Shown here: piece after piece, positions 31,011-52,449 of the stretch
How the letters are laid out: each line of letters begins with the position of its first letter
How positions within the stretch are numbered: position 1 is the first letter of the stretch
Source: an uncultured Muribaculaceae bacterium
GTDB lineage: Bacteria > Pseudomonadota > Alphaproteobacteria > Rs-D84
Assembly: GCA_964619545.1 (NCBI GenBank)
Contig: CAZUED010000001.1
Location: forward strand, 49,898 to 113,897
Direction of reading: 5' to 3'
DNA length: 64,000 bases
Made by a program: the position numbers and the translations under genes
The notes under the pieces: model-generated
Databases searched by the model: none
What the model saw: only the letters and a program-made list of their open reading frames with translations
Told to the model about the DNA's origin: nothing

Positions 31011-31304
31011 CTATAATTGTGAAATGAAATCAGGAAATCCGTTATCGTCGTCATCCATTTTTTCTTCGGTTTCTGGTGCAATTGCACTTTTATCTCGAGG
31101 ATCACGACTGGTATCTATTTTGCATTGTTCTTCATTTACAATACGGCCATAATGCTCGGCCATTTGAAGAATACGCTCGCGTTCGACCGCATCTGGAGTT
31201 TGACGTGCCTGATCCATGTATTGTTTGCGTCTTTGACGCCAACGATGGCAACGCTGAATCATAAGTCCAACGGACATTTGTTTTTTATTAGTATTGTTTT
31301 GCAT
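31011..31304 (-). CDS. DUF4167-like small basic protein
   Basis: Starts MQNNTNKKQ with an R/K-rich stretch and ERERILQMAEHYGR, resembling the alphaproteobacterial DUF4167 family. The tracked ORF extends upstream to 31511 but the SD and start are unclear. Confidence 0.35.
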   Translation of the reverse strand: MQNNTNKKQMSVGLMIQRCHRWRQRRKQYMDQARQTPDAVERERILQMAEHYGRIVNEEQCKIDTSRDPRDKSAIAPETEEKMDDDDNGFPDFISQL

Positions 31305-31444
31305 TTTGTTTCTTTTTATAAAGGTGGAAATAACCGCAAGAAATCTATTAAATGCCTTGCTCTGGTGACATTTTACACTGCATGAAAACCGATTGCAATA
31401 ATTTTTTTTTCTGATTATTATACCCCGTGTAGGAGGGATGTTTT

Positions 31445-32881
31445 TTGCACAGCAATATGCGCGGAAATTTTTTGCTGCAAGCTTTGCTGGCAATCGCCTT
31501 GGTGATGTCATTTATGTCTTTTATGGCGCCAAAATTAGCCGCGCGAAAAAGTGATGCCACCATGGCTGCAATTGCACGCCAGACAGAAACTGCTGCCCGC
31601 GCAGCTCGGCAATTTGTCCGTGCCAACAAGTCAAGCATTGTTTATGGTCCACGCACCATTTCAGGTGATGGATTTTCCGATTTGCTAGAACCTTTTGGTC
31701 TGCCATTGGGTTTTATTCCATTAACCACAGCACAACAAAAAATTTCGCTTTTGACATCAAAAAATGATTCTGGTGTTATTGCCTTGATAGTTTTGCAGGG
31801 TGGTAAAATTTCAGATGTAAAGCGTCATGAATTAATGTCTCGAATCGGGCCCGAGGCTGCAATTGCGGATGATGATGGATTGTTACATGGAATTGGGGGA
31901 TGGGAAAAATCCCTTAAAGATTTTGGTATAAAACCAGATACATCAGCCGTTTATATGCTGGTTCCTGCAGATGATGATTTTTCAGAATTGATCAGACGTA
32001 ATGCTAATGATTTATCAAGAAATAAATTTCATATTGACCTTTCTATGGCAGGTATGTCTATAAAAAACATCACATCACTTTCTGCAAGGAATGCAGAACT
32101 GGGCACCGCAAACTTTGGAACTTTATCCATAACTGGTTCCAGCGACGAGAGAAAGTTTAAGAACAAGATAGATTTAGTATCCGCCACGCGCGCAGTATTT
32201 CAGACACGCGATGGTGCAAATGCTTTGAACATTTCCAGGGGTGATTTAAATGCAAAATCATTATCCGCGCAAACTCTTTTCAGATATGGAATTCCAGGCT
32301 CGGTTGATGCTGGGTCAACTTCAATCAATTCATTATCAATGGCTGTCGGTCGATCAGGATTTATAGGAATGTATGATTGGGATGTTCACAGCGATGTAAT
32401 TTTAAATAATGTTTCTATAGATACTGAACATCTTGAAATAAATGGATTTGTGAATGCTTCGCGTGGTCAGGATGTATTTATTGATAAAGATGAATTAACA
32501 TATTCAACAAAAAGTGGGGTCGAGACAAGAAAACTTACTACCGCATCAATAACTTTACGGGACCAGGTTTCCAGCGCATTGCTTTCTGGATCTGATGGCT
32601 CTGTAATTCTTGACATTCGTCCAGCAGGTGTTTCTGTTTTAACAGATGTTTTATCCGACAGCATAAATAACGACGCATTTGAGATACTTAAAAACCCAAC
32701 CGCCGATGATGGTGCATTAATTGGTTGCAGAAATGTAATTTCTGCTTTGCCATCGGCACCTGCATACAATTCCAAATCCGCTGCGCAAAACATAGTATGC
32801 CAATTTGTTTTCTGGCAACGTCTTGAGCGTCGTATAAACATAAAGCAGTGTATGCTAGACGGGGGCAGCAATTGCGGATGA
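31445..32881 (+). CDS. Large prepilin-like protein A (478 aa): short leader MHSNMRG, then a hydrophobic NFLLQALLAIALVMSFMSFMAP segment
   Basis: TTG start with a strong SD AGGAGGG 7 nt upstream. Has a class-III signal-like N-terminus and a beta-rich remainder; paralogous to the next two genes. Confidence 0.5.
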   Translation: MHSNMRGNFLLQALLAIALVMSFMSFMAPKLAARKSDATMAAIARQTETAARAARQFVRANKSSIVYGPRTISGDGFSDLLEPFGLPLGFIPLTTAQQKISLLTSKNDSGVIALIVLQGGKISDVKRHELMSRIGPEAAIADDDGLLHGIGGWEKSLKDFGIKPDTSAVYMLVPADDDFSELIRRNANDLSRNKFHIDLSMAGMSIKNITSLSARNAELGTANFGTLSITGSSDERKFKNKIDLVSATRAVFQTRDGANALNISRGDLNAKSLSAQTLFRYGIPGSVDAGSTSINSLSMAVGRSGFIGMYDWDVHSDVILNNVSIDTEHLEINGFVNASRGQDVFIDKDELTYSTKSGVETRKLTTASITLRDQVSSALLSGSDGSVILDIRPAGVSVLTDVLSDSINNDAFEILKNPTADDGALIGCRNVISALPSAPAYNSKSAAQNIVCQFVFWQRLERRINIKQCMLDGGSNCG

Positions 32882-34176
32882 TGAATAAATTAAAGTTTTT
32901 TTATAATAAATATATTATGGGTGAAAAAAATTCATCCCATGTAATTCATTATTCATTAACTTGTCAGCGGGGTGCTGGATTGTTAGAAACTTTGCTGGCA
33001 ATCGCAGTTGTTGGTGCAGTTCTACCCTTTGCTTATACCAGTGCTATAGATATGAGTCACAGTATTGCAGATACTGCCGAGGCTAATCGGGTTCTGGCAT
33101 GGCATGATCCTGTGATGGCATATGTTCGTAAGAATCAGTCAGATTGGCCGCAAACGGCACAAATAGAATTTGACGAAGAGGAAGTTGTTATTATGGGGAC
33201 TGGAGACAACAGATTATTGTATCCATATGCCGGGTTTATTGAAAAGCGTCAGGGTTCCGGCGGTTCGGTTATAAATGCATATTTAGCATTTCGCCCAGTT
33301 GGTATAAATGAAATCCGCGTTGCAAACATTGCAAAAAATCTGGGTTCTGATGCTGCTGTTGCCAGCAATGGTGGGAATGCATCCAGCTCTGCTGGATGGA
33401 GCATTTATTCCGAGCTATTTACAGATGGTGATTTGATTTTTAGAATTTCTGACATTTTGGGTGATGATGATGCATACAAGTATTTGCACAGAACTTATTT
33501 GGACGATCCAGAATTAAACACAATGCGTCGTGATTTGGATATGGCAAAAAATAGCATTTTTGACATTGGGAAAATAACAGCGCAAACATTGAATGCTACA
33601 AACTCGAAACTTTGGTTTATTGAAACTCCACATATTCAGACGTCCGAAATTTATTTTCCCGAAGGATCGTCAATTGATGCGTCTAAAGCTGTCTTTGGTT
33701 CGGTTAATGTGAACGGAGACGTTAATGGACTGCGAAAAATTACGGCTGGAAAATTAAAAGGCGCTGCCGTACTTGCTGGTTCGCAGTGGTCTTCACGTGG
33801 CGATGTTGTAGTAGATTCAGTAAATGTAAATGGGCCTGTTAATGTTCAGCGAGACATGGTGGTGCGCGCAGAAAGTGCGCGCAGTATAAGTGGTTTCGCC
33901 GGTGTGCGTGCAAATTCCGTTGCAACGCCATATATTTTTGCAGATCAGATGTTTTTTGCCAGTGGTTATGGGATAACAATTTCAAGTGAGTTGTTATATT
34001 CTTCTACTGGTGTACCAATAAAATTAGGAAATTGGAGCTTTCCATCAACAAGCAGTCCAAAGTTTTCCACGCTGACATTGTATAAATCCAATGGAAAGGA
34101 ATTAGGCCAAGTATTGGGTGTTCCAAATACCAAAGATGTTGCGTCGATAATGAGAAGTGGATGGAAAAATCTGTGA
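32878..34176 (+). CDS. Large prepilin-like protein B (433 aa): 32-aa leader MMNKLKFFYNKYIMGEK...CQRG, then AGLLETLLAIAVVGAVLPF
   Basis: ATGA overlap with gene A. Has RG followed by x4-E and a ~20-aa hydrophobic stretch; the C-terminal GSVNVNGDVNG...VNVNGPVNV repeats suggest a beta-helix. Confidence 0.5.
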   Translation: MMNKLKFFYNKYIMGEKNSSHVIHYSLTCQRGAGLLETLLAIAVVGAVLPFAYTSAIDMSHSIADTAEANRVLAWHDPVMAYVRKNQSDWPQTAQIEFDEEEVVIMGTGDNRLLYPYAGFIEKRQGSGGSVINAYLAFRPVGINEIRVANIAKNLGSDAAVASNGGNASSSAGWSIYSELFTDGDLIFRISDILGDDDAYKYLHRTYLDDPELNTMRRDLDMAKNSIFDIGKITAQTLNATNSKLWFIETPHIQTSEIYFPEGSSIDASKAVFGSVNVNGDVNGLRKITAGKLKGAAVLAGSQWSSRGDVVVDSVNVNGPVNVQRDMVVRAESARSISGFAGVRANSVATPYIFADQMFFASGYGITISSELLYSSTGVPIKLGNWSFPSTSSPKFSTLTLYKSNGKELGQVLGVPNTKDVASIMRSGWKNL

Positions 34177-35537
34177 ATCATAAATTAAGGAATTTTTATA
34201 ATAAATATATTATTGGTGAGAAAATTTCACCAGATGTAACACACCATTCACGTGGCGGGATGATGTTGGAAATACTTTTGTCTTTGGCTATTGCTGCGGC
34301 CGCATTGCCTTTTGTTCTGCGGCAATTAGATAATCGTACGCACCGCGCTGAAAATGTAAGCATAGCGCGCGACATTGCTATGACTCGTGATGCTTTAGAA
34401 CGTTATATGGATGCGCGGAAACGCGAATTATTGGCGCCAACCGGATCATTCGTTACGCGTGTTAAAATGCGCGATCTGATTGAATACGGAAACATTCCAA
34501 AAAATTATGACAAGTTCCAAGCCCGTATAATAAAATCCAGGGATGCAAACGGCCATGCTGTTTTATCAGGTATGGTTATATTTGACTCTGCGGATATATC
34601 ACCAGTGCGAACACGGGAAATTGCAGAACTTGGTGGACAGGGTGCTGGATTTGTAGAACGAAACGAAGCATACAGCGCATTCGGAACATGGCGTAGTAAG
34701 ACAAGTATTTTTGATGCGCAATTTGGCAAGGATTCGGTAGTAGAAAGCACAGACACAATTTTGTCTGGTGGTGACTTTCTTTGGAGATTGCCTTCGAATG
34801 AGCCACTAGACGGATCAATGGCCAGCGATTTTTCTATGGGTGGTAATAATATAAATGACGCAAAGCAAATAGATGCGTATAGCGCAGATTTTAGTGAGAT
34901 TTTGCATGCGGATTTAATTTCCGCCAGAAAAGTTCAGATTACACCTCGTGCAAATTTTGAATCGGCATTAGTTGTATCGGGCGAAGCCCTGGTAATGGGC
35001 GCAATGACATCTGATTCAAGAAATGCGACAATAGGCTCGGAAGTTTTTTTAACTGGCCAGGCGCGTATATCCAGACTGGACACAGGCGAGCTTTGGGTCG
35101 GCGATCTGAATCTGAATGGGCTTTCTATTGGTGGAAGCGAGAAACCTGGAATTTTGAAAGTTGGTCAGACCATAGACATTACTCGCGGCCGTATAACGGC
35201 GCGTACGGCAACTATTGGATATAGCGGTTCAGTTGCACCAAAAATTTCAGTGACCGAACGTATAGAAGATTCAGGCAATCAAGCATATTATTGGGACTTG
35301 AAATCTGGGGATGCCAAGTTTTTTGATGTTTCTGCAGGGCAGCTTAATCAAATGATGAAAAATGCAATTCGCGCCGAATCAAAAAGTCCAAAAACAACTA
35401 CAGAAACAATAATTAATCAAGTTGCCGCAAATAATAATGCGACCATTTCAGATTACGCACGTGCATTGGGCGAAATACAAAGCAAGGTTATGATGAAATA
35501 TAACCGCTTGAAATTAGAGCAAGCCGGTGTAAAATAA
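34161..35537 (+). CDS. Large prepilin-like protein C (458 aa): leader MEKSVNHKLRNFYNKYIIGEK...HSRG, then GMMLEILLSLAIAAAALPF
   Basis: Overlaps the gene B stop. The leader motif KL+xFYNKYI(I/M)GEK is shared with gene B. An alternative GTG start at 34173 gives MNHKLRNFYNKY. Confidence 0.5.
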   Translation: MEKSVNHKLRNFYNKYIIGEKISPDVTHHSRGGMMLEILLSLAIAAAALPFVLRQLDNRTHRAENVSIARDIAMTRDALERYMDARKRELLAPTGSFVTRVKMRDLIEYGNIPKNYDKFQARIIKSRDANGHAVLSGMVIFDSADISPVRTREIAELGGQGAGFVERNEAYSAFGTWRSKTSIFDAQFGKDSVVESTDTILSGGDFLWRLPSNEPLDGSMASDFSMGGNNINDAKQIDAYSADFSEILHADLISARKVQITPRANFESALVVSGEALVMGAMTSDSRNATIGSEVFLTGQARISRLDTGELWVGDLNLNGLSIGGSEKPGILKVGQTIDITRGRITARTATIGYSGSVAPKISVTERIEDSGNQAYYWDLKSGDAKFFDVSAGQLNQMMKNAIRAESKSPKTTTETIINQVAANNNATISDYARALGEIQSKVMMKYNRLKLEQAGVK

Positions 35538-35542
35538 AATAT

Positions 35543-36028
35543 ATGAAAGTTGCTTGTCCTTTTTGTAAAGTAGAGTATTGTGTGCGAAATCAAAATTGCC
35601 GGTTGTTTCAATGCGCAGTTTGTGGTTGCACATGGCGTGCACCATCGCGTGAGAAAAATTCGCGAATATGGATTTTTCTTTTGTCGTGTTTTGTTTTATT
35701 GTTAGCAGTTTTTTCTTTAGTTGCTTTATTGCTTTGGATACCGCACACTAACGAGGCATTGTCAGTCCGGATGGATTCGGCCGTGCGCGCTGATGAATTT
35801 TTGATAGTGTCAGGCGTTGTTTCTAACAAATCGGAAAAATTATATGGCGTTCCAGATTTGATTGTATCAATGAAAGATAATCGGGGCGTGGAAATTTCAT
35901 CTCAAAAATTCTCGCCACCTACACCATTATTAGATTCAGGTGAAGAAGCGGACTTTTCAGTCCAGGTTCGAAATGTGCCGGTAGGGGTAGATAAAATTTC
36001 GGTGAAATTTAATAATACAGGAAATTAA
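35543..36028 (+). CDS. MJ0042-type zinc-ribbon / DUF3426-like membrane protein
   Basis: CPFCKVEYCV...CAVCGCTW zinc ribbon, then a TM helix, then a ~90-aa C-terminal domain. Confidence 0.45.
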   Translation: MKVACPFCKVEYCVRNQNCRLFQCAVCGCTWRAPSREKNSRIWIFLLSCFVLLLAVFSLVALLLWIPHTNEALSVRMDSAVRADEFLIVSGVVSNKSEKLYGVPDLIVSMKDNRGVEISSQKFSPPTPLLDSGEEADFSVQVRNVPVGVDKISVKFNNTGN

Positions 36029-36030
36029 CA

Positions 36031-36501
36031 ATGATTAAAATACTCAACAAATTCTTAGTTGCATTTATCCTTTTTAATTTTGCCGCGCATGCTGATAATG
36101 TTGTGTTACAAAGACCAAGTATATTTTCCACCAGCACAGATTGGGAAAGCATTACAGGTTTGCGATACGGCCAATTTGATTTGTCTTTTATCAGGGATAA
36201 ATCAATCGGGAATAATGGGATAGAGTTATATTTTCTAGATGGTTTTCCGTGTATAGGTCAGGCGCAAACTGCGCGTGCATGGATTTCGCCCAGCAAAATT
36301 TCAGGCGCAGATGAATATGTAAAAATGTATATCAGCTGTGTGCAGCGTCCGACAGAATTACGTTTTGCATGGCGCGAAGCTGCACGTCAAGATTATCAAA
36401 GTCGGACCACAGGAATTATGACTTGTAATATAACAGGACAAGGCCGTTTAATTCCTATTACATTGAACGATTGTGTTAAGGGGAAAAACTGGGATGAGTG
36501 A
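36031..36501 (+). CDS. Secreted hypothetical protein (signal peptide, 4 Cys)
   Basis: N-terminal LVAFILFNFAAHA signal; no recognised domain. Confidence 0.35.
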   Translation: MIKILNKFLVAFILFNFAAHADNVVLQRPSIFSTSTDWESITGLRYGQFDLSFIRDKSIGNNGIELYFLDGFPCIGQAQTARAWISPSKISGADEYVKMYISCVQRPTELRFAWREAARQDYQSRTTGIMTCNITGQGRLIPITLNDCVKGKNWDE

Positions 36502-37456
36502 TATAAGAACATTTATTGCAAAAGAATCTGATGTTAGTTTGCGTCTGGATAAGTTTTTGGTATATCTTATGCCAGAATTTTCGCGCAGCGAAATACAAAA
36601 ATTTTCTGTTAAAAGATTGCCAGATACTGGCGAGATAAAATTTTCAGATAAAATTAAATTTGGTGATAAAATCCAAGTAATTATTCCAGAAAAACAGCAA
36701 AATAAATTACCAACTATAAATAAAAAAAACCAATTTATATTAGATGTTTTATTTGAAGACGACGATGTTATTGTGGTGAATAAGCCACGCGGTGTTGCGA
36801 TGTATCCTGGTGCTGGACGTGAAACCGATACTTTGGTGCAGCGTGTTTTATCGCATACAAATCTGGCATCGTCTGGCGGAGAAATGCGACCAGGCGTTGT
36901 CCATCGTCTAGATAAAGATACAAGTGGGATAGTGATTTTTGCTAAATCGGATGCTGCGCACAAATCTTTAACAAAGACATTTGCTTGGCACGATTTAACC
37001 AGAAAGTATATCGCATTTATTTGGGGCGTTCCAAATTGGACCCAGGCCGACATAAGTGGAAACATAGGGCGTAGTGCACGCAATCGTCAAAAAATGACAA
37101 TGTTAAAGATTGGCGGAAAATTCGCGCAAACCCAGGCCGAAGTAATTGACGCATGGTCAGCAGATGGAATTTCTAAACTACGTTGCACTTTGCTGACTGG
37201 GCGGACACATCAAATTCGTGTGCATCTTTCAGCACATGGCTTTCCTGTTGTTTGTGACCCGCTTTATGGGCGCGGTGCGATGCGACTGGGCAGTGTAAAA
37301 AAAACAGAACTGTATGAATTCTTGAAAACTCACCATGGACAAATGCTACATGCTGAGGTTTTAGAATTAAAACATCCAATAACTGGTCGTCTAATGAAAT
37401 TTAAGTCAAAGATGCCAACTGACATGAAACAATTACAAGACATTTTAGAAAGCTGA
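36494..37456 (+). CDS. rluD: 23S rRNA pseudouridine synthase RluD (RluA family, S4 domain)
   Basis: S4-like N-terminus LRLDKFLV and the catalytic HRLDKDTSGIVIFAKS. Confidence 0.85.
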   Translation: MSDIRTFIAKESDVSLRLDKFLVYLMPEFSRSEIQKFSVKRLPDTGEIKFSDKIKFGDKIQVIIPEKQQNKLPTINKKNQFILDVLFEDDDVIVVNKPRGVAMYPGAGRETDTLVQRVLSHTNLASSGGEMRPGVVHRLDKDTSGIVIFAKSDAAHKSLTKTFAWHDLTRKYIAFIWGVPNWTQADISGNIGRSARNRQKMTMLKIGGKFAQTQAEVIDAWSADGISKLRCTLLTGRTHQIRVHLSAHGFPVVCDPLYGRGAMRLGSVKKTELYEFLKTHHGQMLHAEVLELKHPITGRLMKFKSKMPTDMKQLQDILES

Positions 37457-42871: not shown

Positions 42872-43585
42872 CTAGCTGACAATTCCATCTTTGATAGTAA
42901 TAATCCTATCGGCCCGTTTGGCCAGGTTCATATCATGAGTTACAAACAACATTGACATATGTGTCTGCTTGGTCAGAGAAAGAAGTAAATCAAAAACATT
43001 TGCGGAATGGGTGGGATCAAGGCTGCCAGTAGGCTCGTCCGCTAGCAGGATTTCAGGATCATTTGCCAGTGCGCGTGCGACCGCAGTACGTTGCTGTTCG
43101 CCACCAGACATTTCGGCTGGTCTGTGATCAGCGCGATGTAAAACATTTGCAGCCTTTAACAGCTTTCGTGCACGTGCGCAAGCGAGGTCCTCATCAATTC
43201 CATTTGCCAGCATGGGCAACATTACATTTTCAAGTGCGGTAAAATCTTCCAGCAAATTATGTCGTTGATAAACAAAGCCGAGTTTTGTGCGTCGCATTGC
43301 TGTGCGTTGATCTTCGGTCATTTTGTTTGTTGGAATCCCGGCAATTACAATTTGCCCGCCGCTGGGTTTTTCCAGCAATCCAACGCATTGCAGTAAAGTT
43401 GATTTACCACATCCAGATGGGCCAACCAGTGCGATAATCTCGCCACGCAGTAAATCAAATCCGCCGCCACGTAGAATGTGCAAAGGTTGTCCGCCTTCGA
43501 TAAAAGATTTTCTTATTCCAGCAACCGACAAGACCGAGGCGCGCTTTTTCACAGATGATAAAGATTTTAGTATTGATGCTGCCAT
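42872..43585 (-). CDS. lolD: Lipoprotein-releasing system ATP-binding protein LolD
   Basis: Walker A GPSGCGKST, signature SGGEQQRTAVARAL, Walker B LLADEPTGSLD. Confidence 0.85.
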   Translation of the reverse strand: MAASILKSLSSVKKRASVLSVAGIRKSFIEGGQPLHILRGGGFDLLRGEIIALVGPSGCGKSTLLQCVGLLEKPSGGQIVIAGIPTNKMTEDQRTAMRRTKLGFVYQRHNLLEDFTALENVMLPMLANGIDEDLACARARKLLKAANVLHRADHRPAEMSGGEQQRTAVARALANDPEILLADEPTGSLDPTHSANVFDLLLSLTKQTHMSMLFVTHDMNLAKRADRIITIKDGIVS

Positions 43586-43586
43586 T

Positions 43587-44840
43587 TTATTCGTTCCTTA
43601 AAACTTCCACTGGATCTGTTTTTGCTGCCTTCCATGCAGGGTAAAGCGTTGCCAAAAATGCCAATGCAATCGCAACAAATGCAATTCCTGCAACATTCCA
43701 GAATTCTATTTTTGATGGCAGCTCGGACAGAAAATACAAATCAGCCGGGAATAAATCGCGCCCAGTTGCCCATTGGAAAAACTGCCGGATTGGTTCAATA
43801 TATTTTGCAACCAGAACTCCAAGGATTGTTCCGAAAGCTGCGCCGATTATTCCGATACTGCTGCCGCACAAGATAAAGATTTTCATCATGCTGCGACGGG
43901 ACACGCCAAATGTGCGCAATACAGCAATGTCACGCGACTTGTCTTTTACCAGCATTACAAGAGATGACACAATGTTAAATGCTGCGACAATCACAATTAA
44001 AAGCAAAATTAAAAACATAACATTTGATTCAACCTGCAGGGCACCGACAAATCCACGATTTAAATCACGCCAATCACGTACAATAAATCCCGTAGGAAGA
44101 CTTGCGGCCAATGCATCTCGTACCTGAGTTGTTTTATTTGGGTCGGTTAAAAATAAATCTATGTGCGAAACTCCATCAGATGAGTCCAAAAATTTTTGTG
44201 CAGTTTCAAGCGGCATGAAAATATATCCGGAATCATATTCATACATTCCAGCAAAAAAAGTAGTAGCCACAGGATAAGACTGAATCCGTGGTATTGTTCC
44301 AAATGCAGTTGCTGTGCCGCCGTTCGCGCTGATAAGCGTTGCCGGATCATTTCTGGTTAATCTTAAATTTCTGGACAAGGCCGCGCCCATTACAAGTTGT
44401 CCATCTTTTACATTGGATATAGGTGCGCCGTAAATTTTTGTGCCAGTTTGAAATTTATGCTCTAAATCGCCCATTCTGATTCCGCGTACCATGGCGCCAG
44501 AGTTATTGCCATTTGCAGAAACCATTACTTGGCCTTCCAAAACAGGAACAATGTCAGTCGTTGATGCTGCAACGACTTTATTACTTTTCATCTTTTCAAT
44601 CAGATAATCAAAGTCTTTGATTGCGCCGTCTTGATGATAAACAACAACATGGCCATTCATACCAACGATACGTGAAAGTAAAGTGTCGTGAAATCCGCCC
44701 ATAACAGACATAACAACAATAAGCGTTGCAACGCCCAGGGCAATTCCCAATAAAGATACCCAAGAAACTACACTGCCAAAACCGCGCCCCCGGGCGCGTA
44801 GATACCTGAATGCAATTTTCTTTTCAAGACTACTAAACAT
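43587..44840 (-). CDS. lolC: Lipoprotein-releasing system permease LolC/LolE (FtsX-like)
   Basis: N-terminal FRYLRARGRGFGSVVSWVSLLGIALGVATLIVVMSVMGGF and a C-terminal FtsX-domain four-helix bundle. Confidence 0.85.
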   Translation of the reverse strand: MFSSLEKKIAFRYLRARGRGFGSVVSWVSLLGIALGVATLIVVMSVMGGFHDTLLSRIVGMNGHVVVYHQDGAIKDFDYLIEKMKSNKVVAASTTDIVPVLEGQVMVSANGNNSGAMVRGIRMGDLEHKFQTGTKIYGAPISNVKDGQLVMGAALSRNLRLTRNDPATLISANGGTATAFGTIPRIQSYPVATTFFAGMYEYDSGYIFMPLETAQKFLDSSDGVSHIDLFLTDPNKTTQVRDALAASLPTGFIVRDWRDLNRGFVGALQVESNVMFLILLLIVIVAAFNIVSSLVMLVKDKSRDIAVLRTFGVSRRSMMKIFILCGSSIGIIGAAFGTILGVLVAKYIEPIRQFFQWATGRDLFPADLYFLSELPSKIEFWNVAGIAFVAIALAFLATLYPAWKAAKTDPVEVLRNE

Positions 44841-44842
44841 TT

Positions 44843-46204
44843 TTATTCCTCTAAATACTCGCGCAGTTTATCACCAGAAATTTTTGGTGTTCTTGTTGCT
44901 TCGCCGGGCTCTACTATTGAAACAACTCGTGGGCTCATAAACACAACCAACTCTGCAAATGGATTTATCAATGTTTCGGGTTCGGTCACAAAGCTGTGTG
45001 TTGGAATTCCAATTATCACATAGTTATCACCCAGGCTGGATGGAACATTAAAGTTTGCCAATTCCCCATCGCTGGTGCGAAGTGTTATTTTAGCATCAAG
45101 TTTTACCATGTCTGCATACTGACCATACTTTCCAGTCGCGCCAACAATCAAGTCCGTTTCCAATCTGTCCTCGCGGGAACACTGACCAATGTCAAATCTG
45201 CTTTGCCAGCCATTTGGTATTACAAATGTTCCTTGGGAAATTAAAACTACATTAGCTTGTTGTGATAAGAATGATTGTAATGTTTTTGTGTTTATCTCTG
45301 GGGACACCACCAGTAATCTGCCAACTACGCCAGGTATCGACATTTTTACATTGTCATCACCGAATGCTGGCAACATATTCATCCATACTATCGGATTATC
45401 AGTGCGTGGATATACGCGATATACATCCATGTCCCATGCAACTAGGAATTTTTTGTTGCCGACATCTGCAACAATTGCGCGAACTTCGCGTTCGGTTTGA
45501 TAATTTCCCTCGAATACCAGGGTTTTATCCTGCCAGTTAGTAAGCAGATTTCGCAATTCAGCACCACGCATTGCATCGATCAACGCCATTATCATATGCT
45601 GGTCTTTTGGCATTTTCATCAGCCATTTTCCGCGTGATGAAATCCGAATTTCCTTGGCATCGTCATCATAAGAGTAATAAACTTTTCCCAATTTGCAGAT
45701 AAGCTCTACAGCGTCTTCCAATGTTCCGGATTTAATTTCTCCGCTAATCAGATCTGGCATATTGTCGGATACAACTACTTTTATCTTGGTTCCTTTTAAA
45801 AGGTTTTCTAAAACATCTGGGACATTCTTTTTCTTGAATGCAAAATCTTCGACGTCAAAATCAGGCAGATTATCGCCCTTGTTCAATCGCACGATTTCAA
45901 CAGGTTGTGCCGGGATAACAGACATTATATTTTGGTTATCCCAATCAACTTTACATCTTTTTGGAAGGTCTATGGCAAAACGCCGTGCGGTATCAGTTGT
46001 CAATCCAGCTTTGCGTGGAAATATAGGAACTGAGTATTCATCTACAATTGTGTTTTCAACAACCTCTATCGTATCGTATTGGACCTGATTTTGCTGACGC
46101 ATTTGTGTGCATCCAGCAAGTACAAGGCACAGAATACATGTCACAGGTAATATTTTTATATATTTTATATTCATTGTTGGTTCCTTGTTTCTATGCTTTG
46201 CCAT
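44843..46204 (-). CDS. Secretin-like outer-membrane lipoprotein (Secretin_N-like plus C-terminal secretin motif), co-operonic with lolCD
   Basis: Lipobox LVLAGC; N-domain-like NVPDVLENLLKGTKIKVVVSDNMPDLISGEIKSGTLEDAVELICKLGKVYY; C-terminal ETLINPFAELVVFMSPRVV resembles the secretin ELVIFVTPRIV signature. The likely true start is MNIKYIKIL at 46174. Confidence 0.5.
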   Translation of the reverse strand: MAKHRNKEPTMNIKYIKILPVTCILCLVLAGCTQMRQQNQVQYDTIEVVENTIVDEYSVPIFPRKAGLTTDTARRFAIDLPKRCKVDWDNQNIMSVIPAQPVEIVRLNKGDNLPDFDVEDFAFKKKNVPDVLENLLKGTKIKVVVSDNMPDLISGEIKSGTLEDAVELICKLGKVYYSYDDDAKEIRISSRGKWLMKMPKDQHMIMALIDAMRGAELRNLLTNWQDKTLVFEGNYQTEREVRAIVADVGNKKFLVAWDMDVYRVYPRTDNPIVWMNMLPAFGDDNVKMSIPGVVGRLLVVSPEINTKTLQSFLSQQANVVLISQGTFVIPNGWQSRFDIGQCSREDRLETDLIVGATGKYGQYADMVKLDAKITLRTSDGELANFNVPSSLGDNYVIIGIPTHSFVTEPETLINPFAELVVFMSPRVVSIVEPGEATRTPKISGDKLREYLEE

Positions 46205-47134: not shown

Positions 47135-47821
47135 ATGAAAAACAAATTCCTGTTTTGGCTGTCGTTAGCCGTAGCGGTGTTGCTGGCGGTTTATCTTGGT
47201 GTGCGCATCAGCATGGTTCTGATGGGTGTGGGTGGGTCGCTGTCATCGGTAAAGAAAATTTCTGTACATTCCAGTAATGGTGAGGTTGCCGGTCTTATTT
47301 CGCGCCTGGGTATTGAACCTGGGGTTCGGCATGTTGATTTGGATCAGGCTTTGACGCGTATCGCGGCCGATCCAGATGTGGCAAGTGCCGGGGTGCGTCG
47401 AATGCCTAATGGCGAAATAAAAGTTCGTGCAAAAATGAGGGTTGTTATAGCCAGTTGGACAGATGGGGAACATTATTATCCTTTGGATGATACGGGTGCG
47501 CCGATAAATCGGCCATTGCCGGAAAGACCGGCAAATACTTTGATTTTTTCTGGTCAAGTCCCAAGCGACATTTCATCAGCTATAGCAGCATTAAAGCAGG
47601 CACCAGGGCTGTTTTATAGAATAGACAGAGTGGAGTTTGTAGAAGGCAGGCGTTGGGACATTTTTTTGCTGAATGGAATTCGTATTATGCTGCCCGAGGA
47701 AAATTTTGCCAGCGCTGCCGAAAAAATAGAAAAGCTGAATAAACAAAATATGATATTGGACAGACAAATAACACTTTTGGATTTGCGTGATCCAGCGCGC
47801 GTACTTGTAAAATTAAAATGA
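47135..47821 (+). CDS. ftsQ: Cell-division protein FtsQ (short POTRA-domain form)
   Basis: N-terminal TM helix, then VRHVDLDQALTRIAADPDVASAGVRRMPNGEIKVRAKMRVVIASW, a POTRA/FtsQ pattern; immediately upstream of ftsA. Confidence 0.7.
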   Translation: MKNKFLFWLSLAVAVLLAVYLGVRISMVLMGVGGSLSSVKKISVHSSNGEVAGLISRLGIEPGVRHVDLDQALTRIAADPDVASAGVRRMPNGEIKVRAKMRVVIASWTDGEHYYPLDDTGAPINRPLPERPANTLIFSGQVPSDISSAIAALKQAPGLFYRIDRVEFVEGRRWDIFLLNGIRIMLPEENFASAAEKIEKLNKQNMILDRQITLLDLRDPARVLVKLK

Positions 47822-49587
47822 ATCTGACAGATGGTGCATTTTTATGTTTAGACATTGGATCGTCCGGCGTTCATGCAGTTGCCGTACGTGTCAGTTTTGG
47901 TCGTATCAAAGCATCTGCAAATGCGTTTGTTGAATCAAAGGACGCAGTTTGGGCATTAAAATCATCGGTGGATAGCCTGGAAGAGCAAATTGGCGCGCGC
48001 TTTGACTCTGCATTTGTTACCGGAAATTTTGGTGCAATAAAGTCAGAAATTTTTTCGCGAAAAACATCATGGGCGTCTGAGCATAAAATTACCCCGCAAG
48101 ATGTTTTAGAGCAGGTGTCAGATGCAACCGAAGATGGATTTTCAATCTTACATATAATTCCGCTACGCTATGATCTAATCGGATTTCACAACATTGCAAA
48201 TGTGGTTGGACAAACTGATTGTGCCTTGCTTTCTGTGTTTCATTCAATTTCTTATTCTGATCAAGGATTGCTGCGGGCAAAATCTGCTTTGCATGGCGCT
48301 CATTTAGAGTCAGATGGATTTTTTGATCCATCATTTATTTTGGCGGCCAGTATACGTGAGTCTGCTGAATCATCCGTTTTTATAGATTTTGGTGCCCAGT
48401 TCACCAGTGTTTCACTTTGGACGCCCCGCGGACCAATGCTGATGGCAAAAGTGCCTTTGGGTGGTGCGCGTATTACAAAAGAAATTGCTAAAGCTTTTGG
48501 CGTGCCAGTTGCCGAGGCCGAACGACTGAAAATTTCCGGTATGACATTGATGCGTACGGATATGGATAGATTCACACCCAGCGATGCAAAGCATGACATT
48601 ACCAGATTTGAATTAAACGAGGTGACTGGTTCGGTATTTTCAGAAATCTTGGGTCAAGTGCATGATGTGTTGGACGCGGGAATACAAAAATACAATCCGG
48701 TAAAACTTTATATCAGCGGCGGCGGCGCACAAATTTCCGGACTAGACACAGTATTGGAAAAAGAATTTTCCATGCCAGTAAAAAACCTGGGCGCCTTTGG
48801 AATTGCCAGCGCATTGGCTGAATTTGTCTGGAACAATGAATCTTCGCGCGTTTCTGTTTATCTGGCGCGCAGAAAAAAATGGGATAAGGTTTTCGGATTC
48901 TTGTTCGCACCTTTGCGCTGGCGGTTAAAAACTGGGCGCAAGCGCTTGGTGCCAATTATGCCCAGCACTCTTGTGTGGGATATGCGTAATGGTACTACCT
49001 ATGCAAAATTTGCATCGGCGAATATTAGTATGATTCACGTTGATGTAATGGACGGATTTTATGTTGAAAAAATTGCTAGCGGAATTGACGAGCTTCGATT
49101 TATTCGTGCACACACAAAATCACATTTGCATGTTCATCTTATGACTGAAAATCCGGTCAGTTGGGCCGCGGAAGTAATTGAAGCCGGCGCAGATACAATA
49201 ATTGTTTCATCTGGAACTAATGGGGTGGTGCGGGCATTGCGTGAAATCCGGACCTCAGGTCGGCGTGCAGGAATAGCATTACATCCAAATACCCCATTGG
49301 AAGTAATTGCACCAGTGTTACGCGAAATTGACGAAGTTATGGTTATGTCTGTTGTTCCTGGGGCATCAGGACAATGTTTTATTGAATCTTCACTTTCTAG
49401 AATTGCGTCGCTTTATAATACCAGACGTCGTCATGGTTTGCATTTCAAGATCTCAGTTGATGGCGGAATAAATCCTGAGACAGCAAAAAAATGCTGGGCC
49501 GCAGGTGCAGATTTGTTGGTCGCGGGAAGCTTTCTGGCATCTGCCCCCGACTTTGCTGGCGCAGTTCAAGAACTGATCAGGAAATAA
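47818..49587 (+). CDS. ftsA: FtsA (actin-like cell-division protein) fused in frame to ribulose-phosphate 3-epimerase (Rpe); 589 aa
   Basis: N-terminal FLCLDIGSSGVHAVAV, ISGGGAQISGL and an amphipathic WDKVFGFLFAPLRW helix (FtsA membrane-targeting helix). This runs without a stop into IMPSTLVWD...IHVDVMDGFYV...VDGGINPETA (Rpe TIM barrel). Confidence 0.7.
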   Translation: MNLTDGAFLCLDIGSSGVHAVAVRVSFGRIKASANAFVESKDAVWALKSSVDSLEEQIGARFDSAFVTGNFGAIKSEIFSRKTSWASEHKITPQDVLEQVSDATEDGFSILHIIPLRYDLIGFHNIANVVGQTDCALLSVFHSISYSDQGLLRAKSALHGAHLESDGFFDPSFILAASIRESAESSVFIDFGAQFTSVSLWTPRGPMLMAKVPLGGARITKEIAKAFGVPVAEAERLKISGMTLMRTDMDRFTPSDAKHDITRFELNEVTGSVFSEILGQVHDVLDAGIQKYNPVKLYISGGGAQISGLDTVLEKEFSMPVKNLGAFGIASALAEFVWNNESSRVSVYLARRKKWDKVFGFLFAPLRWRLKTGRKRLVPIMPSTLVWDMRNGTTYAKFASANISMIHVDVMDGFYVEKIASGIDELRFIRAHTKSHLHVHLMTENPVSWAAEVIEAGADTIIVSSGTNGVVRALREIRTSGRRAGIALHPNTPLEVIAPVLREIDEVMVMSVVPGASGQCFIESSLSRIASLYNTRRRHGLHFKISVDGGINPETAKKCWAAGADLLVAGSFLASAPDFAGAVQELIRK

Positions 49588-49710: not shown

Positions 49711-52449
49711 ATGAGAATAAAAAAAGCAATAATCGTTGGTTTGATGCTGCCTTTAGTATCTGAAATTTGCGCGATACCGGCGGGTGCTGTCAGCTATGTG
49801 AATACGCCGACCGCGCGCCCCAGCACTACGGCGCGTATGCCGACATTGTTGACAGGTTCAGTTGCCAGTACGGCTTATTCTACTGCGACTAATGCTGGAT
49901 TGGCTGCGACGTGTGCAAATCCATTACCGGAAAGGCTGACCTCTAACAGATGCATTGACAGATACGATTCGTGCCTGCGCCAAGAAAATGTCTGCGGCGA
50001 ACATTTTGAGCTGTGCTATAACTTAAAACAATTTAACAAGTCCCGCATAATGTGTCAGGATTATTTGGCACAATGTCCCGCCGAAGCAATCAAAGCCATC
50101 TTTGGAAATTCTGTTACAACATCGGATGATTTTTCCGCGGCGAACCGGGCGATGTGTGATGGCGAATCCGTTTTGATAAAAAGATCTTTTTCTCCATCAC
50201 TTGGTGACATTGCGGTCGCCGGTGATAGCAGAATAGACATCGCTATAAAAGAGGGTAGAAACTGGGCTGCTGCAAATAGCGTTAAAACTTGTAACAAAGC
50301 TGCTGATGTTTGTATTCAGAATGCTTGCCAAGGTTCTCCACAGAAATGTATTTCTTTGAATGGATTTTCAGATATAGACACGGCCGAGATGGTTAATATA
50401 GCAACAGCTGGCGAAACCACTTTGCGCTTGAATGCAAAAATGTTGGAAACTTGGATTTTCAATATGGGCTGGGATGACAGCAATGTAAAAAATTATCTGA
50501 AAGAGCAATGCCGTGAAACTATTGGTGCAAACGAATGGTGCTTTATGGTGACAAATGGCAAGCCAGCCAAGGAAGCAGACCTGGTTGATAATTTTAACAT
50601 CCAGGAAGTTTTCACAGACATTATGTATAATGGTGTTGGTGCCCGTTGGAAAATGTCACAATCCAAGATAAAAGAATGGGCGGCAGCTGCAACCAAAAAT
50701 TCTGTAGCGCAATGCCAGGCTGCATTGACCGATTGTGCAATTAATGCATGCGGTGAAGGATCGCGCGCACGGTGCTATGGATTGGCAAAAGATGGCAATT
50801 CGGTCAGTATAAAGAATAAAGCAGGTTCTGACATCGAAGGCCAATGCAAGAATTTGATAGAAAACAATCAATACTGCAAGGATGTTTTCCGTAACAAAGA
50901 AAATGGTTTGGATGGGGATGTCTGGACCCAGGTTTGGACAAATGATGTTATGGGGACCATAGTTGGTCTGGATTCCGATTTGCAAAAAATGTTTAACGAA
51001 GAGGCTGTGGCAGAAATGCGCCGTAGCTGTCAGGCTCAGGCTGAAAAATGTGTTATGGACGAATGCGGAAGCGATTTCTCGCGCTGCTTTATAACCAGCA
51101 GTGATGCTAAAAAGGCAGGCCAGGTTGCTTTTGCATCTGGCAAGGTAACCAGCAGTTTGTTTGCCGGCGGATTTGATGAAGCCTTGGCTCGTGACCTGTG
51201 CATACTGAAAGTAAAACAAGTCACAGATTGTAATGACTATTTTGATGTTCAATATGCAAAACAATCAAGTGGCAAAAGTGCTGATGCGTGGGCCACATCC
51301 AGCACGGCTCGTAATGCTTGGCTGGGCGCTGCGAACAGCACGACAGAAGACAATGTATGCCGAGTGACCGAAACCTATCTGGATAAATATGATGTTTCGG
51401 GCAATGCGATTGACCCAACGGTTAAGTTGGCGTCCAAGGTAAAGGTTTGCGCAGCCCAAGAACGCGGTATATTTGATGGATTGTTAGGCGATATAAACAA
51501 GCGCGCGAATTCGGTTCTAGAACGCGAAGCAAATGACATTAAAAACGCTTGTGAAAACAGCAATGTCAAGGGCTCGACCGCAAAAGATTATATCTGGGCG
51601 GCATTTGACGGGTTGGGCGGATCTGACGAATATAGTGGATTCAGTGAAGTTCGCGAAACAAGTAATCCGTTTGATGGATTCTGTGCAGTTCGTGTAACAA
51701 TTCGTTCTAATAATTCCAAAGTTGTCAGCGCACTTGGTGGTAATAAAACTATGTATTATGCAAAAGGCACAACTATGCCTTGCCTGGGCTTGACCGCGGA
51801 CGAGCTGGAAAAAGTCGAGCGCGCAGTTGCATCTGATGTAAGGTTCTGTGGTTCTGATGAAACAAATGCAACTCATGGCTGTGTAGAGAGAATGACAGGA
51901 TTGCAAAAAACCCTGAGTATAGGTGGCGCGACCTTGGGGGGCCTAGTTGTTGGTGGCTTGGGCGGGGTCATGGCTGGTAATGCGATACAGAATAAAATAA
52001 CCAGCTCGGGCAACAATCTCAGCGAGGCTGAACGGACTATATTAAACAATTGCAATTCTTGTTTGTCATCCCAAGGTGTTGGATTCAGCAGCAAAAACGC
52101 ATGCAGTTCTGCCAGTATGGGTGACAACGATGATGGCAAAAGCAATGTTGTTGCAAAAAATCTTTGCCAAGCAAAGGCGAACGAGCTGAATGCCAAGGCG
52201 AAAAAACAAACAAACAATCTGATGAACTTTGCCAGCACTGGCGGAATTACTGGGGCAAGTGTTGGTGCTGGATTGTTAGGTTTGACCGGCGGACTTTTGG
52301 CTGGTAATGCGATTGATCAAAATGAAAAGGATAAATTAGCAGAAGCCCGTCAGGCAGCCATAGATGATTTTAACGCTAAGACAGATATAAATTGTTATAT
52401 CGGCGGTAAAAAAGTTGCCGCGTATGGTTCAGATATGGTTATAAAATAA
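49711..52449 (+). CDS. Giant secreted cysteine-rich repeat protein (912 aa, 39 Cys) with two C-terminal glycine-zipper segments
   Basis: Signal peptide; three tandem super-repeats each carrying C-x6-C-x4-C-x6/7-C followed by C-x9/10-C; C-terminal LSIGGATLGGLVVGGLGGVMAGNAI and GGITGASVGAGLLGLTGGLLAGNAI. Confidence 0.55.
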   Translation: MRIKKAIIVGLMLPLVSEICAIPAGAVSYVNTPTARPSTTARMPTLLTGSVASTAYSTATNAGLAATCANPLPERLTSNRCIDRYDSCLRQENVCGEHFELCYNLKQFNKSRIMCQDYLAQCPAEAIKAIFGNSVTTSDDFSAANRAMCDGESVLIKRSFSPSLGDIAVAGDSRIDIAIKEGRNWAAANSVKTCNKAADVCIQNACQGSPQKCISLNGFSDIDTAEMVNIATAGETTLRLNAKMLETWIFNMGWDDSNVKNYLKEQCRETIGANEWCFMVTNGKPAKEADLVDNFNIQEVFTDIMYNGVGARWKMSQSKIKEWAAAATKNSVAQCQAALTDCAINACGEGSRARCYGLAKDGNSVSIKNKAGSDIEGQCKNLIENNQYCKDVFRNKENGLDGDVWTQVWTNDVMGTIVGLDSDLQKMFNEEAVAEMRRSCQAQAEKCVMDECGSDFSRCFITSSDAKKAGQVAFASGKVTSSLFAGGFDEALARDLCILKVKQVTDCNDYFDVQYAKQSSGKSADAWATSSTARNAWLGAANSTTEDNVCRVTETYLDKYDVSGNAIDPTVKLASKVKVCAAQERGIFDGLLGDINKRANSVLEREANDIKNACENSNVKGSTAKDYIWAAFDGLGGSDEYSGFSEVRETSNPFDGFCAVRVTIRSNNSKVVSALGGNKTMYYAKGTTMPCLGLTADELEKVERAVASDVRFCGSDETNATHGCVERMTGLQKTLSIGGATLGGLVVGGLGGVMAGNAIQNKITSSGNNLSEAERTILNNCNSCLSSQGVGFSSKNACSSASMGDNDDGKSNVVAKNLCQAKANELNAKAKKQTNNLMNFASTGGITGASVGAGLLGLTGGLLAGNAIDQNEKDKLAEARQAAIDDFNAKTDINCYIGGKKVAAYGSDMVIK

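Follow-up and report, generated by a model that had tools for sequence, protein, structure and literature searches.

CofB of the enterotoxigenic Escherichia coli pilus CFA/III and TcpB of the Vibrio cholerae toxin-coregulated pilus (TCP) have large beta-rich domains C-terminal to a pilin domain; both are homotrimers of one gene product and are encoded within the pilus operon. The heterotrimeric tips GspI-GspJ-GspK and PilV-W-X are built from several different pilin-like subunits of about 120-330 residues, which are encoded side by side in gsp or pil operons, and one of these subunits, GspK, lacks Glu5. PilV, the tip adhesin of the conjugative thin pilus of IncI-type R64 and TP114, is a minor pilin that sets recipient specificity, and this specificity lies in its C-terminal part (PMC9045228). 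Here we describe a 64-kb stretch of an alphaproteobacterial chromosome of the order Rs-D84 (contig CAZUED010000001.1, positions 49,898 to 113,897; hereafter the window), in which three consecutive genes, designated A, B and C, encode proteins of 430-480 residues. Based on their sequences, the three proteins are best explained as anciently diverged paralogues of PilV (Shufflon_N), a type IVb minor pilin.

Rs-D84 is a gut lineage of vertebrates, among them humans and farm animals, that is also found in termite-associated samples. Most genomes of the order are below 1 Mb and without the majority of biosynthetic pathways. Enterousia genomes are smaller than 1 Mb and lack most biosynthesis, and obligate symbiosis or parasitism has been suggested; a dependence on a partner is assumed, with no structure for contact or uptake being named (PMC12306168). 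The window itself is a housekeeping stretch of a chromosome with about 41% GC, carrying gyrB, aspS, uvrB, recA, ruvABC, mnmE, bipA, serS, ftsQ/A, mutL and secDF among others.

Homology to PilV

Comparison of the three family profiles with a profile of four aligned plasmid PilV proteins by the program hhalign revealed matches with probabilities of 98.5% (E 3e-15) for A, 97.6% (E 2.8e-12) for B and 98.4% (E 4.6e-15) for C, covering 201-228 columns. A tblastn search of A against the 72,556 plasmids of PLSDB yielded 11 matches, all of which are pilV, and nine of them cover residues 2 to about 195-217. These two results support the kinship with large type IVb minor pilins that the initial annotation had suggested from protein size. 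Among the homologues of A, the protein P0081 matched PF04917 with 22.1 bits (E 1.3e-4), below the gathering score of 27.5 bits, and two others were named PilV by the Prokaryotic Genome Annotation Pipeline. Pfam and NCBIfam scans of the single A, B and C sequences gave nothing usable.

Similar to A, B and C, PilV falls in the size class of 430-480 residues and combines a prepilin signal, a homologous N-terminal region of about 200-230 residues, the motif (L)NxMxxDLxMGGNxI and a divergent C-terminal part. The Pantoea PilV sequence HRG↓NMLLQ (the arrow marks the predicted cleavage site) resembles MRG↓NFLLQ of A, so that both proteins show the pattern RG↓N(F/M)LLQ with Gln at position +5. However, A, B and C differ from PilV in being chromosomal genes of Alphaproteobacteria and in forming three diverged tandem paralogues rather than one gene, and their C-terminal halves are unrelated to that of PilV. 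The genomic setting is also different. No pilI-pilU genes lie beside A, B and C, and neither comparison of the plasmid locus with the window nor a phmmer search of all related loci recovered a pil-operon setting with PilN, PilQ, PilR, PilS and PilU. No shufflon was found at the three genes, as there is no set of inverted or sfx-type repeats at their 3' ends and no adjoining Rci recombinase; the only integrase-family gene in the window lies 17 kb away and reads as XerC/D-like.

The architecture of a pilin domain followed by a large C-terminal part appears to be shared with CofB and TcpB, but A, B and C are three different genes outside any pilus operon, and phmmer and profile searches of the PDB detected no sequence similarity to these two proteins. 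In encoding several different pilin-like subunits side by side, the locus resembles those of the GspI-J-K and PilV-W-X complexes; no sequence relationship to them was seen.

Sequence relationship and predicted fold

The initial annotation regarded A, B and C as paralogues. BLASTP aligns A with B (24% identity, E 1e-6), B with C (27%, E 2e-13) and A with C (21%, E 1e-3) over the first 230 residues or so, whereas none of the C-terminal halves aligns to another, so that the paralogy holds for the N-terminal domain and not beyond it. A joint alignment of the N-terminal domains revealed a common skeleton of Gly(-1), a hydrophobic helix ending with Pro-Phe, a conserved '...IG..A' segment and the block (L)NxMxxDLxMGGNxI. 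The D-(L/F)-(S/D)-M-(A/G) block noticed earlier in all three proteins is real and is seen in this alignment; in the form D-(L/F)-x-M-(A/G) it corresponds to AIDMNGNNI of PilV (LNRMHTAIDMNGNNI). In A, the pilin domain (residues 1 to about 220) is followed by a beta-rich middle part and a C-terminal domain with four invariant Cys residues. The pilin domain of B extends up to about residue 245 and is followed by an unassigned C-terminal half; the VNVNG motif of this protein, from which a beta-helix had been suggested, has two occurrences only. In each of the three proteins the C-terminal half is beta-rich and different from the other two. C carries a conserved helical C-terminal motif, NxNATxSDYxRAL...KYNxLNLE.

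The AlphaFold2 model of A, calculated from an alignment of 55 sequences, shows a helix at residues 4-56 and a sheet at residues 63-170 with a predicted local distance difference test score (pLDDT) of 80-90; its middle part is unreliable and the C-terminal four-Cys module is confident. In the model of B, a helix at residues 35-89 and a sheet at residues 94-195 have a pLDDT of 75-91, and the C-terminal half is unreliable. The pilin fold, in which about 20 hydrophobic residues make up the first half of a long N-terminal helix and an antiparallel beta-sheet head comes next, was recovered independently in A and B. Together with the PilV homology over about 200-230 residues, this agrees with the pilin helix and beta-domain that the initial annotation had put forward for a fold or profile check. 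The best match of the N-terminal domain profile against the PDB is the N-terminal helix of Geobacter PilA (E 0.0014). A Foldseek search with the whole model of A gave no match at E<=0.001, and phmmer searches of the PDB with A, B and C gave no match.

Prepilin signal and leader sequences

All three proteins begin with a class III (type IV prepilin) signal, in line with the initial annotation. The leader of A, MHSNMRG, is followed by the predicted mature N-terminus NFLLQALLAIALV with Gln at +5; B has a leader of 32 residues ending with QRG, then AGLLETLLAIAVVGAVLPF with Glu at +5; and the leader of C ends with SRG and precedes GMMLEILLSLAIAAAALPF, again with Glu at +5. The consensus sequences from about 80 related species are M-x(3-6)-G↓NFLLQALLAL...PF for A, ...RG↓A(S/G)xxE.LLA.AI...PF.Y for B and ...RG↓(G/S)MLxELLLS.ALAA...PF for C. 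Every species in which the motif was located has Gly(-1) in all three proteins, and this residue forms an invariant column of the joint alignment. Gln(+5) of A was found in all of 80 species, and Glu(+5) in 76 of 81 species for B and 75 of 78 for C. A hydrophobic stretch of about 17 residues that closes with Pro-Phe comes next, and a Pro near +18 is near-invariant in about 80 species. On sequence grounds, the three N-termini fit the class III signal in textbook fashion, with a conservation far beyond chance.

The long leader common to B and C was also correctly recognised at the outset, but it proved to be a recent 71-nt copy. Leaders of 28-32 residues in B and C are confined to this species and its nearest relatives; those of other species have about 12-20 residues. 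The two copies of the 71-nt direct repeat coding for the extended leaders are 82% identical, although the host genes are otherwise just 27% identical as protein, and one relative (locus L011) has the long leader on C and not on B. The simplest reading of these sequence data is an insertion in C that was later copied into B by gene conversion. Since the long leader is clade-specific and recently copied, it gives no evidence of type IVb character, and the earlier view of leaders this long as a type IVb sign does not describe a family trait. Co-variation of the B and C leaders as a common recognition signal was considered and rejected. The similarity within genomes (2.81 of 12 matches) exceeds that between genomes (2.44) only slightly (permutation p ~5e-4), a few clades drive this excess, and recent gene conversion fits the window better. 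The 71-nt repeat has a very high AT content and includes TATAAT-like hexamers (TTTTTATAATAAATATATTAT); a further role at the level of DNA or RNA, for example as an internal promoter or translation-initiation region, is possible.

Operon organization and conservation

The features of the locus are listed in Table 1. As first described, A, B and C are tandem, coupled open reading frames (ORFs) with overlaps of 4-16 nt, all on the forward strand. The junction between the stop of A and the start of B is an ATGA overlap. The overlap of B and C is 16 nt long with ATG 34161 as the start of C; with GTG 34173 instead, it is a 4-nt GTGA. The two small ORFs D and E adjoin C with no gap between them, and the rluD-type gene is next. 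For A, the start at TTG 31445 with the leader MHSNMRG is likely because of the AGGAGG upstream of it; the alternative ATG 31457 would give a protein of 474 residues. Independent gene callers predicted the same genes in four public assemblies. An Rfam scan of the window from 27 to 40 kb found no family.

Table 1. Features of the A-E operon and of other elements discussed in the text (window coordinates).
Feature	Position	Strand	Description	Basis or remark
U	31011..31277	-	88 aa, small, divergently transcribed, DUF4167-like	Gene call
Promoter-like TTGCAA-17-TATTAT	31393-31421		Upstream of A	Consensus match only, not above shuffled expectation
Shine-Dalgarno-like AGGAGG	31431..31436	+	8 nt upstream of the TTG of A	Sequence read
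A	31445..32881	+	PilV-like, pilin-like; TTG start, 478 aa	ORF call
B	32878..34176	+	PilV-like, pilin-like; 432 aa	ORF call
71-nt direct repeat, copy 1	32885..32955	+	Codes for the extended leader of B	
C	34161..35537	+	PilV-like, pilin-like; 458 aa from ATG 34161	Alternative GTG start 34173
71-nt direct repeat, copy 2	34180..34250	+	Codes for the extended leader of C	
D	35543..36028	+	ZitP-like bitopic protein, 161 aa	
E	36031..36501	+	Secreted or periplasmic 4-Cys protein, 156 aa	
RluD-type pseudouridine synthase	36494..37456	+	PF00849; overlaps the end of E	Conserved downstream neighbour
Lipoprotein initially called secretin-like	44843-46204	-	453 aa, lipobox LAGC	

Across the order Rs-D84, the three pilin-like genes are co-transcribed with D and E, always in one arrangement apart from the few loci noted next. 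The order U(-) A B C D E is kept in 81 of 86 loci, U lies upstream of A in 84 of the 86, and overlapping or abutting junctions are the rule for the operon across 79 related loci. The sequences themselves have diverged considerably, with median identities to the window proteins of 43% for A, 35% for B, 38% for C, 34% for D and 41% for E. Homologues of A form more than 783 clusters. The homologues of the operon proteins are confined to metagenome-assembled genomes (MAGs) of uncultured Alphaproteobacteria and 'Rickettsiales' from gut and termite samples. A scan across GTDB placed a relative in 276 species representatives, many of them Ca. Enterousia, and the order is Rs-D84. Some public MAG records with the A-E operon are titled Muribaculaceae, Prevotella, Bacteroides fragilis or Lachnospiraceae (L011, L016, L018, L028, L066, L071 and P0169) and are likely mis-binned or mislabelled; one such record, OZ246409.1 (716 kb), is labelled 'chromosome: 1'.

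The N-terminal domain profile matches 1846 representative proteins at E<=1e-3, including forms of 500-650 and of 1000-1600 residues. The prepilin signal is retained in the listed members of this superfamily, and none of the members sampled has a Pfam family above threshold. One clade of about 1000-1600 residues from human-gut and rumen metagenomes (L091-L139, for example L103 9977-12982 and L115 9980-13252) combines a PilV-like N-terminal domain and the signal G↓SMMVEALAML with a highly conserved C-terminal domain. Each protein of this clade is preceded by a protein of 220-290 residues that begins directly with a hydrophobic helix (MY(L/I)WV(L/V)LATF...). No pilus genes were found at the loci of the distant clade, where the neighbours are housekeeping or flagellar genes; in L103 the pair lies among the flagellar genes fliP, fliL and fliM.

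Neighbouring genes

D appears to combine an N-terminal CxxC...CxxC zinc ribbon, one transmembrane helix and a periplasmic DUF3426-like beta domain. Among 16 orthologues, Zn_ribbon_4 was matched by 15 (best E 8.7e-8) and DUF3426 by eight (best E 2.1e-6), the bit scores shown being below the Pfam cut-offs; the copy in the window matches DUF3426 only (E 0.015), with the zinc ribbon judged by PF13717/PF13719. The same succession of zinc ribbon, transmembrane helix and periplasmic DUF3426 domain makes up ZitP of Caulobacter crescentus, in which biogenesis of the polar pilus depends on the DUF3426 domain (PMC5182063). Unlike ZitP, D has about 160 rather than 311 residues, its matches stay under the Pfam thresholds, neither CpaM nor Cpa genes turned up, and the gene is joined into an operon with pilin-like genes. 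E has a signal peptide, the motif IFSTSTDWE and four invariant Cys residues, and it belongs to no known family and has no known relatives. It follows D in every case, mostly with a 4-nt overlap. The four invariant Cys residues in A and in E suggest an oxidising, extracytoplasmic site.

The DUF4167 matches of U orthologues lie under the threshold (E 2e-4 to 4e-4); although a conserved neighbour of the operon, U is probably not part of the A-E machine. Similarly, the function of the RluD-type gene is probably unrelated to the operon. A secreted, very Cys-rich protein of 912 residues with Gly-rich hydrophobic stretches near its C-terminus and no Pfam family is encoded at 49711-52449 (+). A homologue (27% identical, E 2e-61; L009 15925-18960) lies directly after rluD beside the A-E operon in L009 and L010, and the 912-residue protein may belong to the A-E surface apparatus. 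In L010, from an Enterousia-like genome, a VirD4/TraG-type coupling protein of type IV secretion (1-990, -) is encoded about 9 kb upstream of the operon, indicating that at least some members of Rs-D84 carry components of a type IV secretion system. Elsewhere in the window, an ORF of 589 residues directly after ftsQ (47818-49587, +) combines an FtsA-like actin-fold region (residues 187-322) with a complete ribulose-phosphate 3-epimerase domain (residues 382-572), being either an unusual gene fusion or a case of a lost stop codon.

The initial annotation had also linked the three proteins to a 'secretin-like lipoprotein 9 kb away', and this link was not borne out. The 453-residue lipoprotein gave no Secretin (PF00263) match at E<=1, no PDB match and no BLASTP similarity to plasmid PilN, and its reading as a secretin was not adopted; no family could be assigned to it. 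It heads a three-gene operon (42872-46204, -) and is co-transcribed with a MacB/LolC-like FtsX permease and an ABC ATPase. A weak FecR_C/STN-like stretch was found at residues 121-182 (E 0.098), and the C-terminus, ELVVFMSPRVVS, is secretin-like by eye only.

Proposed mechanism and alternative explanations

We propose that A, B and C assemble 1:1:1 into a complex of minor pilins that forms the tip of a short filament or initiates it and serves as its adhesin, a model to which we give an even chance of being right. The three proteins would enter the inner membrane as prepilins, and a prepilin peptidase encoded elsewhere would cut off the leader behind the invariant Gly. Bundling of the three N-terminal helices might then give a 1:1:1 heterotrimer, corresponding in heteromeric form to the CofB/TcpB trimer or the GspI-J-K tip, with A, which lacks Glu5, in the top position. 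This complex would prime or cap a short type IV filament or pseudopilus. D may place the complex or help to assemble it, as ZitP does for the Caulobacter Cpa pilus via its periplasmic DUF3426 domain, and the divergent C-terminal halves may attach to a receptor displayed by the partner cell of these bacteria, which are metabolically dependent.

Several points weigh against this model. The heterotrimer, its position at the tip, the cleavage and the adhesin role are all features that we infer. None of A, B and C matches the Pfam model Shufflon_N (PF04917) at E<=1, and the C-terminal halves of the AlphaFold2 models are unreliable (pLDDT <50). Pfam scans of nearly all ORFs of at least 150 residues, together with the gene calls, revealed no assembly ATPase, platform protein, prepilin peptidase, secretin or small major pilin in the window; for the ATPase, the platform protein and the peptidase this agrees with the initial annotation. 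The other G....E/Q matches in the window are internal ORF segments, two of them within SecF, and no further prepilin-like N-terminus was found. Nor was any found in about 1.7 Mb of sequence from related loci, which was searched by phmmer with the R64-type proteins PilM, N, O, P, Q, R, S, T and U and with TcpQ, and by motif expressions, of which that for the A24 peptidase is weak and missed the plasmid's own peptidase too. The single genomic survey covering the order gives type IV pilus genes only for a lineage other than Rs-D84 (PMC12306168). Finally, ZitP orthologues in Rickettsia massiliae act in PopZ polarity control (PMC5182065), so that D may simply be the polarity factor of the lineage.

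The gene content would suit a lineage that has lost its type IV machine. A, B and C would then be anchored in the inner membrane via their N-terminal helices, cleaved or not, and would form with D and E a periplasmic or envelope-spanning, possibly polar complex that is never polymerised by an ATPase, a descendant of minor pilins that works independently of the machine. The absence of machinery from the window and from the surroundings of the operon in about 80 species argues for such a loss, as does the silence of the published account (PMC12306168) on type IV pilus genes in Rs-D84. In addition, the operon lies amid housekeeping genes and is conserved like a core gene set, and the distant clade of about 1000 residues with the same N-terminal domain is likewise found among housekeeping or flagellar genes. 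However, the invariant Gly(-1) and the near-invariant Glu(+5) argue against a complete loss of processing, being hard to explain without cleavage and helix-helix registration in a filament, and we regard this alternative, the main rival of the tip-complex model, as rather unlikely. A dispersed pilus apparatus or, alternatively, a new family of membrane-anchored fibrous surface proteins, both raised in the initial annotation, may also apply. It is also conceivable, but still less probable, that the whole pilus machine was discarded while a PilV-type pilin was kept, triplicated and enlarged. With the ZitP-like protein and a small periplasmic protein, it would then make a self-sufficient, possibly polar contact organelle, without an assembly ATPase, for holding and perhaps feeding from a partner cell.

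Other filament systems fit the data less well. If A, B and C were the equivalents of GspK, I, J or GspH in a type II secretion-like pseudopilus, they would serve as the periplasmic piston tip for export and not as an adhesin. GspK lacks Glu5 like A, one N-terminus of the A family weakly matches the HpsB pseudopilin (E 0.047), and some homologues are publicly annotated as 'type II secretion system protein' or 'PulG'. These names probably stem from the generic N-terminal motif alone. The closest sequence relatives are PilV and not Gsp proteins, no gsp genes were found in the window and related loci, and A, B and C are 2-4 times larger than GspI, J and K, with long divergent C-terminal domains, which makes a pseudopilus improbable. 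In Alphaproteobacteria, type IV pili are commonly of the Tad/Cpa (type IVc) kind. A role of A, B and C as minor pilins of such a pilus is suggested by the adjoining D, with an architecture like that of ZitP, which controls Cpa pilus biogenesis in Caulobacter (PMC5182063). Yet none of the three proteins matches TadE, TadG or Flp in Pfam, their neighbours in sequence and fold are type IVb pilins, and the window and related loci contain no cpa or tad genes, so that we consider this assignment very improbable. Even the lack of any Pfam or NCBIfam family at threshold for the window proteins hardly lends credence to ordinary signal-anchored adhesins that resemble pilins by chance at the N-terminus. 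The profile homology to PilV runs over about 200-230 residues, well past the hydrophobic helix, and the pilin fold recovered independently for A and B already contradicts such an origin.

Biological significance

We rate the fold and family of A, B and C as known and the arrangement as new, with three enlarged chromosomal paralogues, a ZitP-like gene in the operon, no shufflon and no pil operon, kept order-wide. The 1846 proteins recognised by the N-terminal domain profile add a large unannotated superfamily, missed by Pfam at present, to the PilV/Shufflon_N fold. The operon is also a naturally occurring example in which large minor pilins of three heterologous types come in a fixed stoichiometry, which bears on how tip and initiation complexes are built. 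Should no machine exist in Rs-D84 genomes, the locus would bear on what pilin-like proteins do without one, and if the self-sufficient organelle were real, it would be a pilin-based surface structure needing no assembly ATPase. Because the operon takes up about 5 kb of a tiny genome, with the same gene order in about 80 species, and its three proteins belong to a family founded by a cell-recognition adhesin (PilV), it is a concrete candidate for the apparatus of host or partner contact, and the best candidate yet for how Rs-D84, presumed parasites or symbionts, touch their partner cell.

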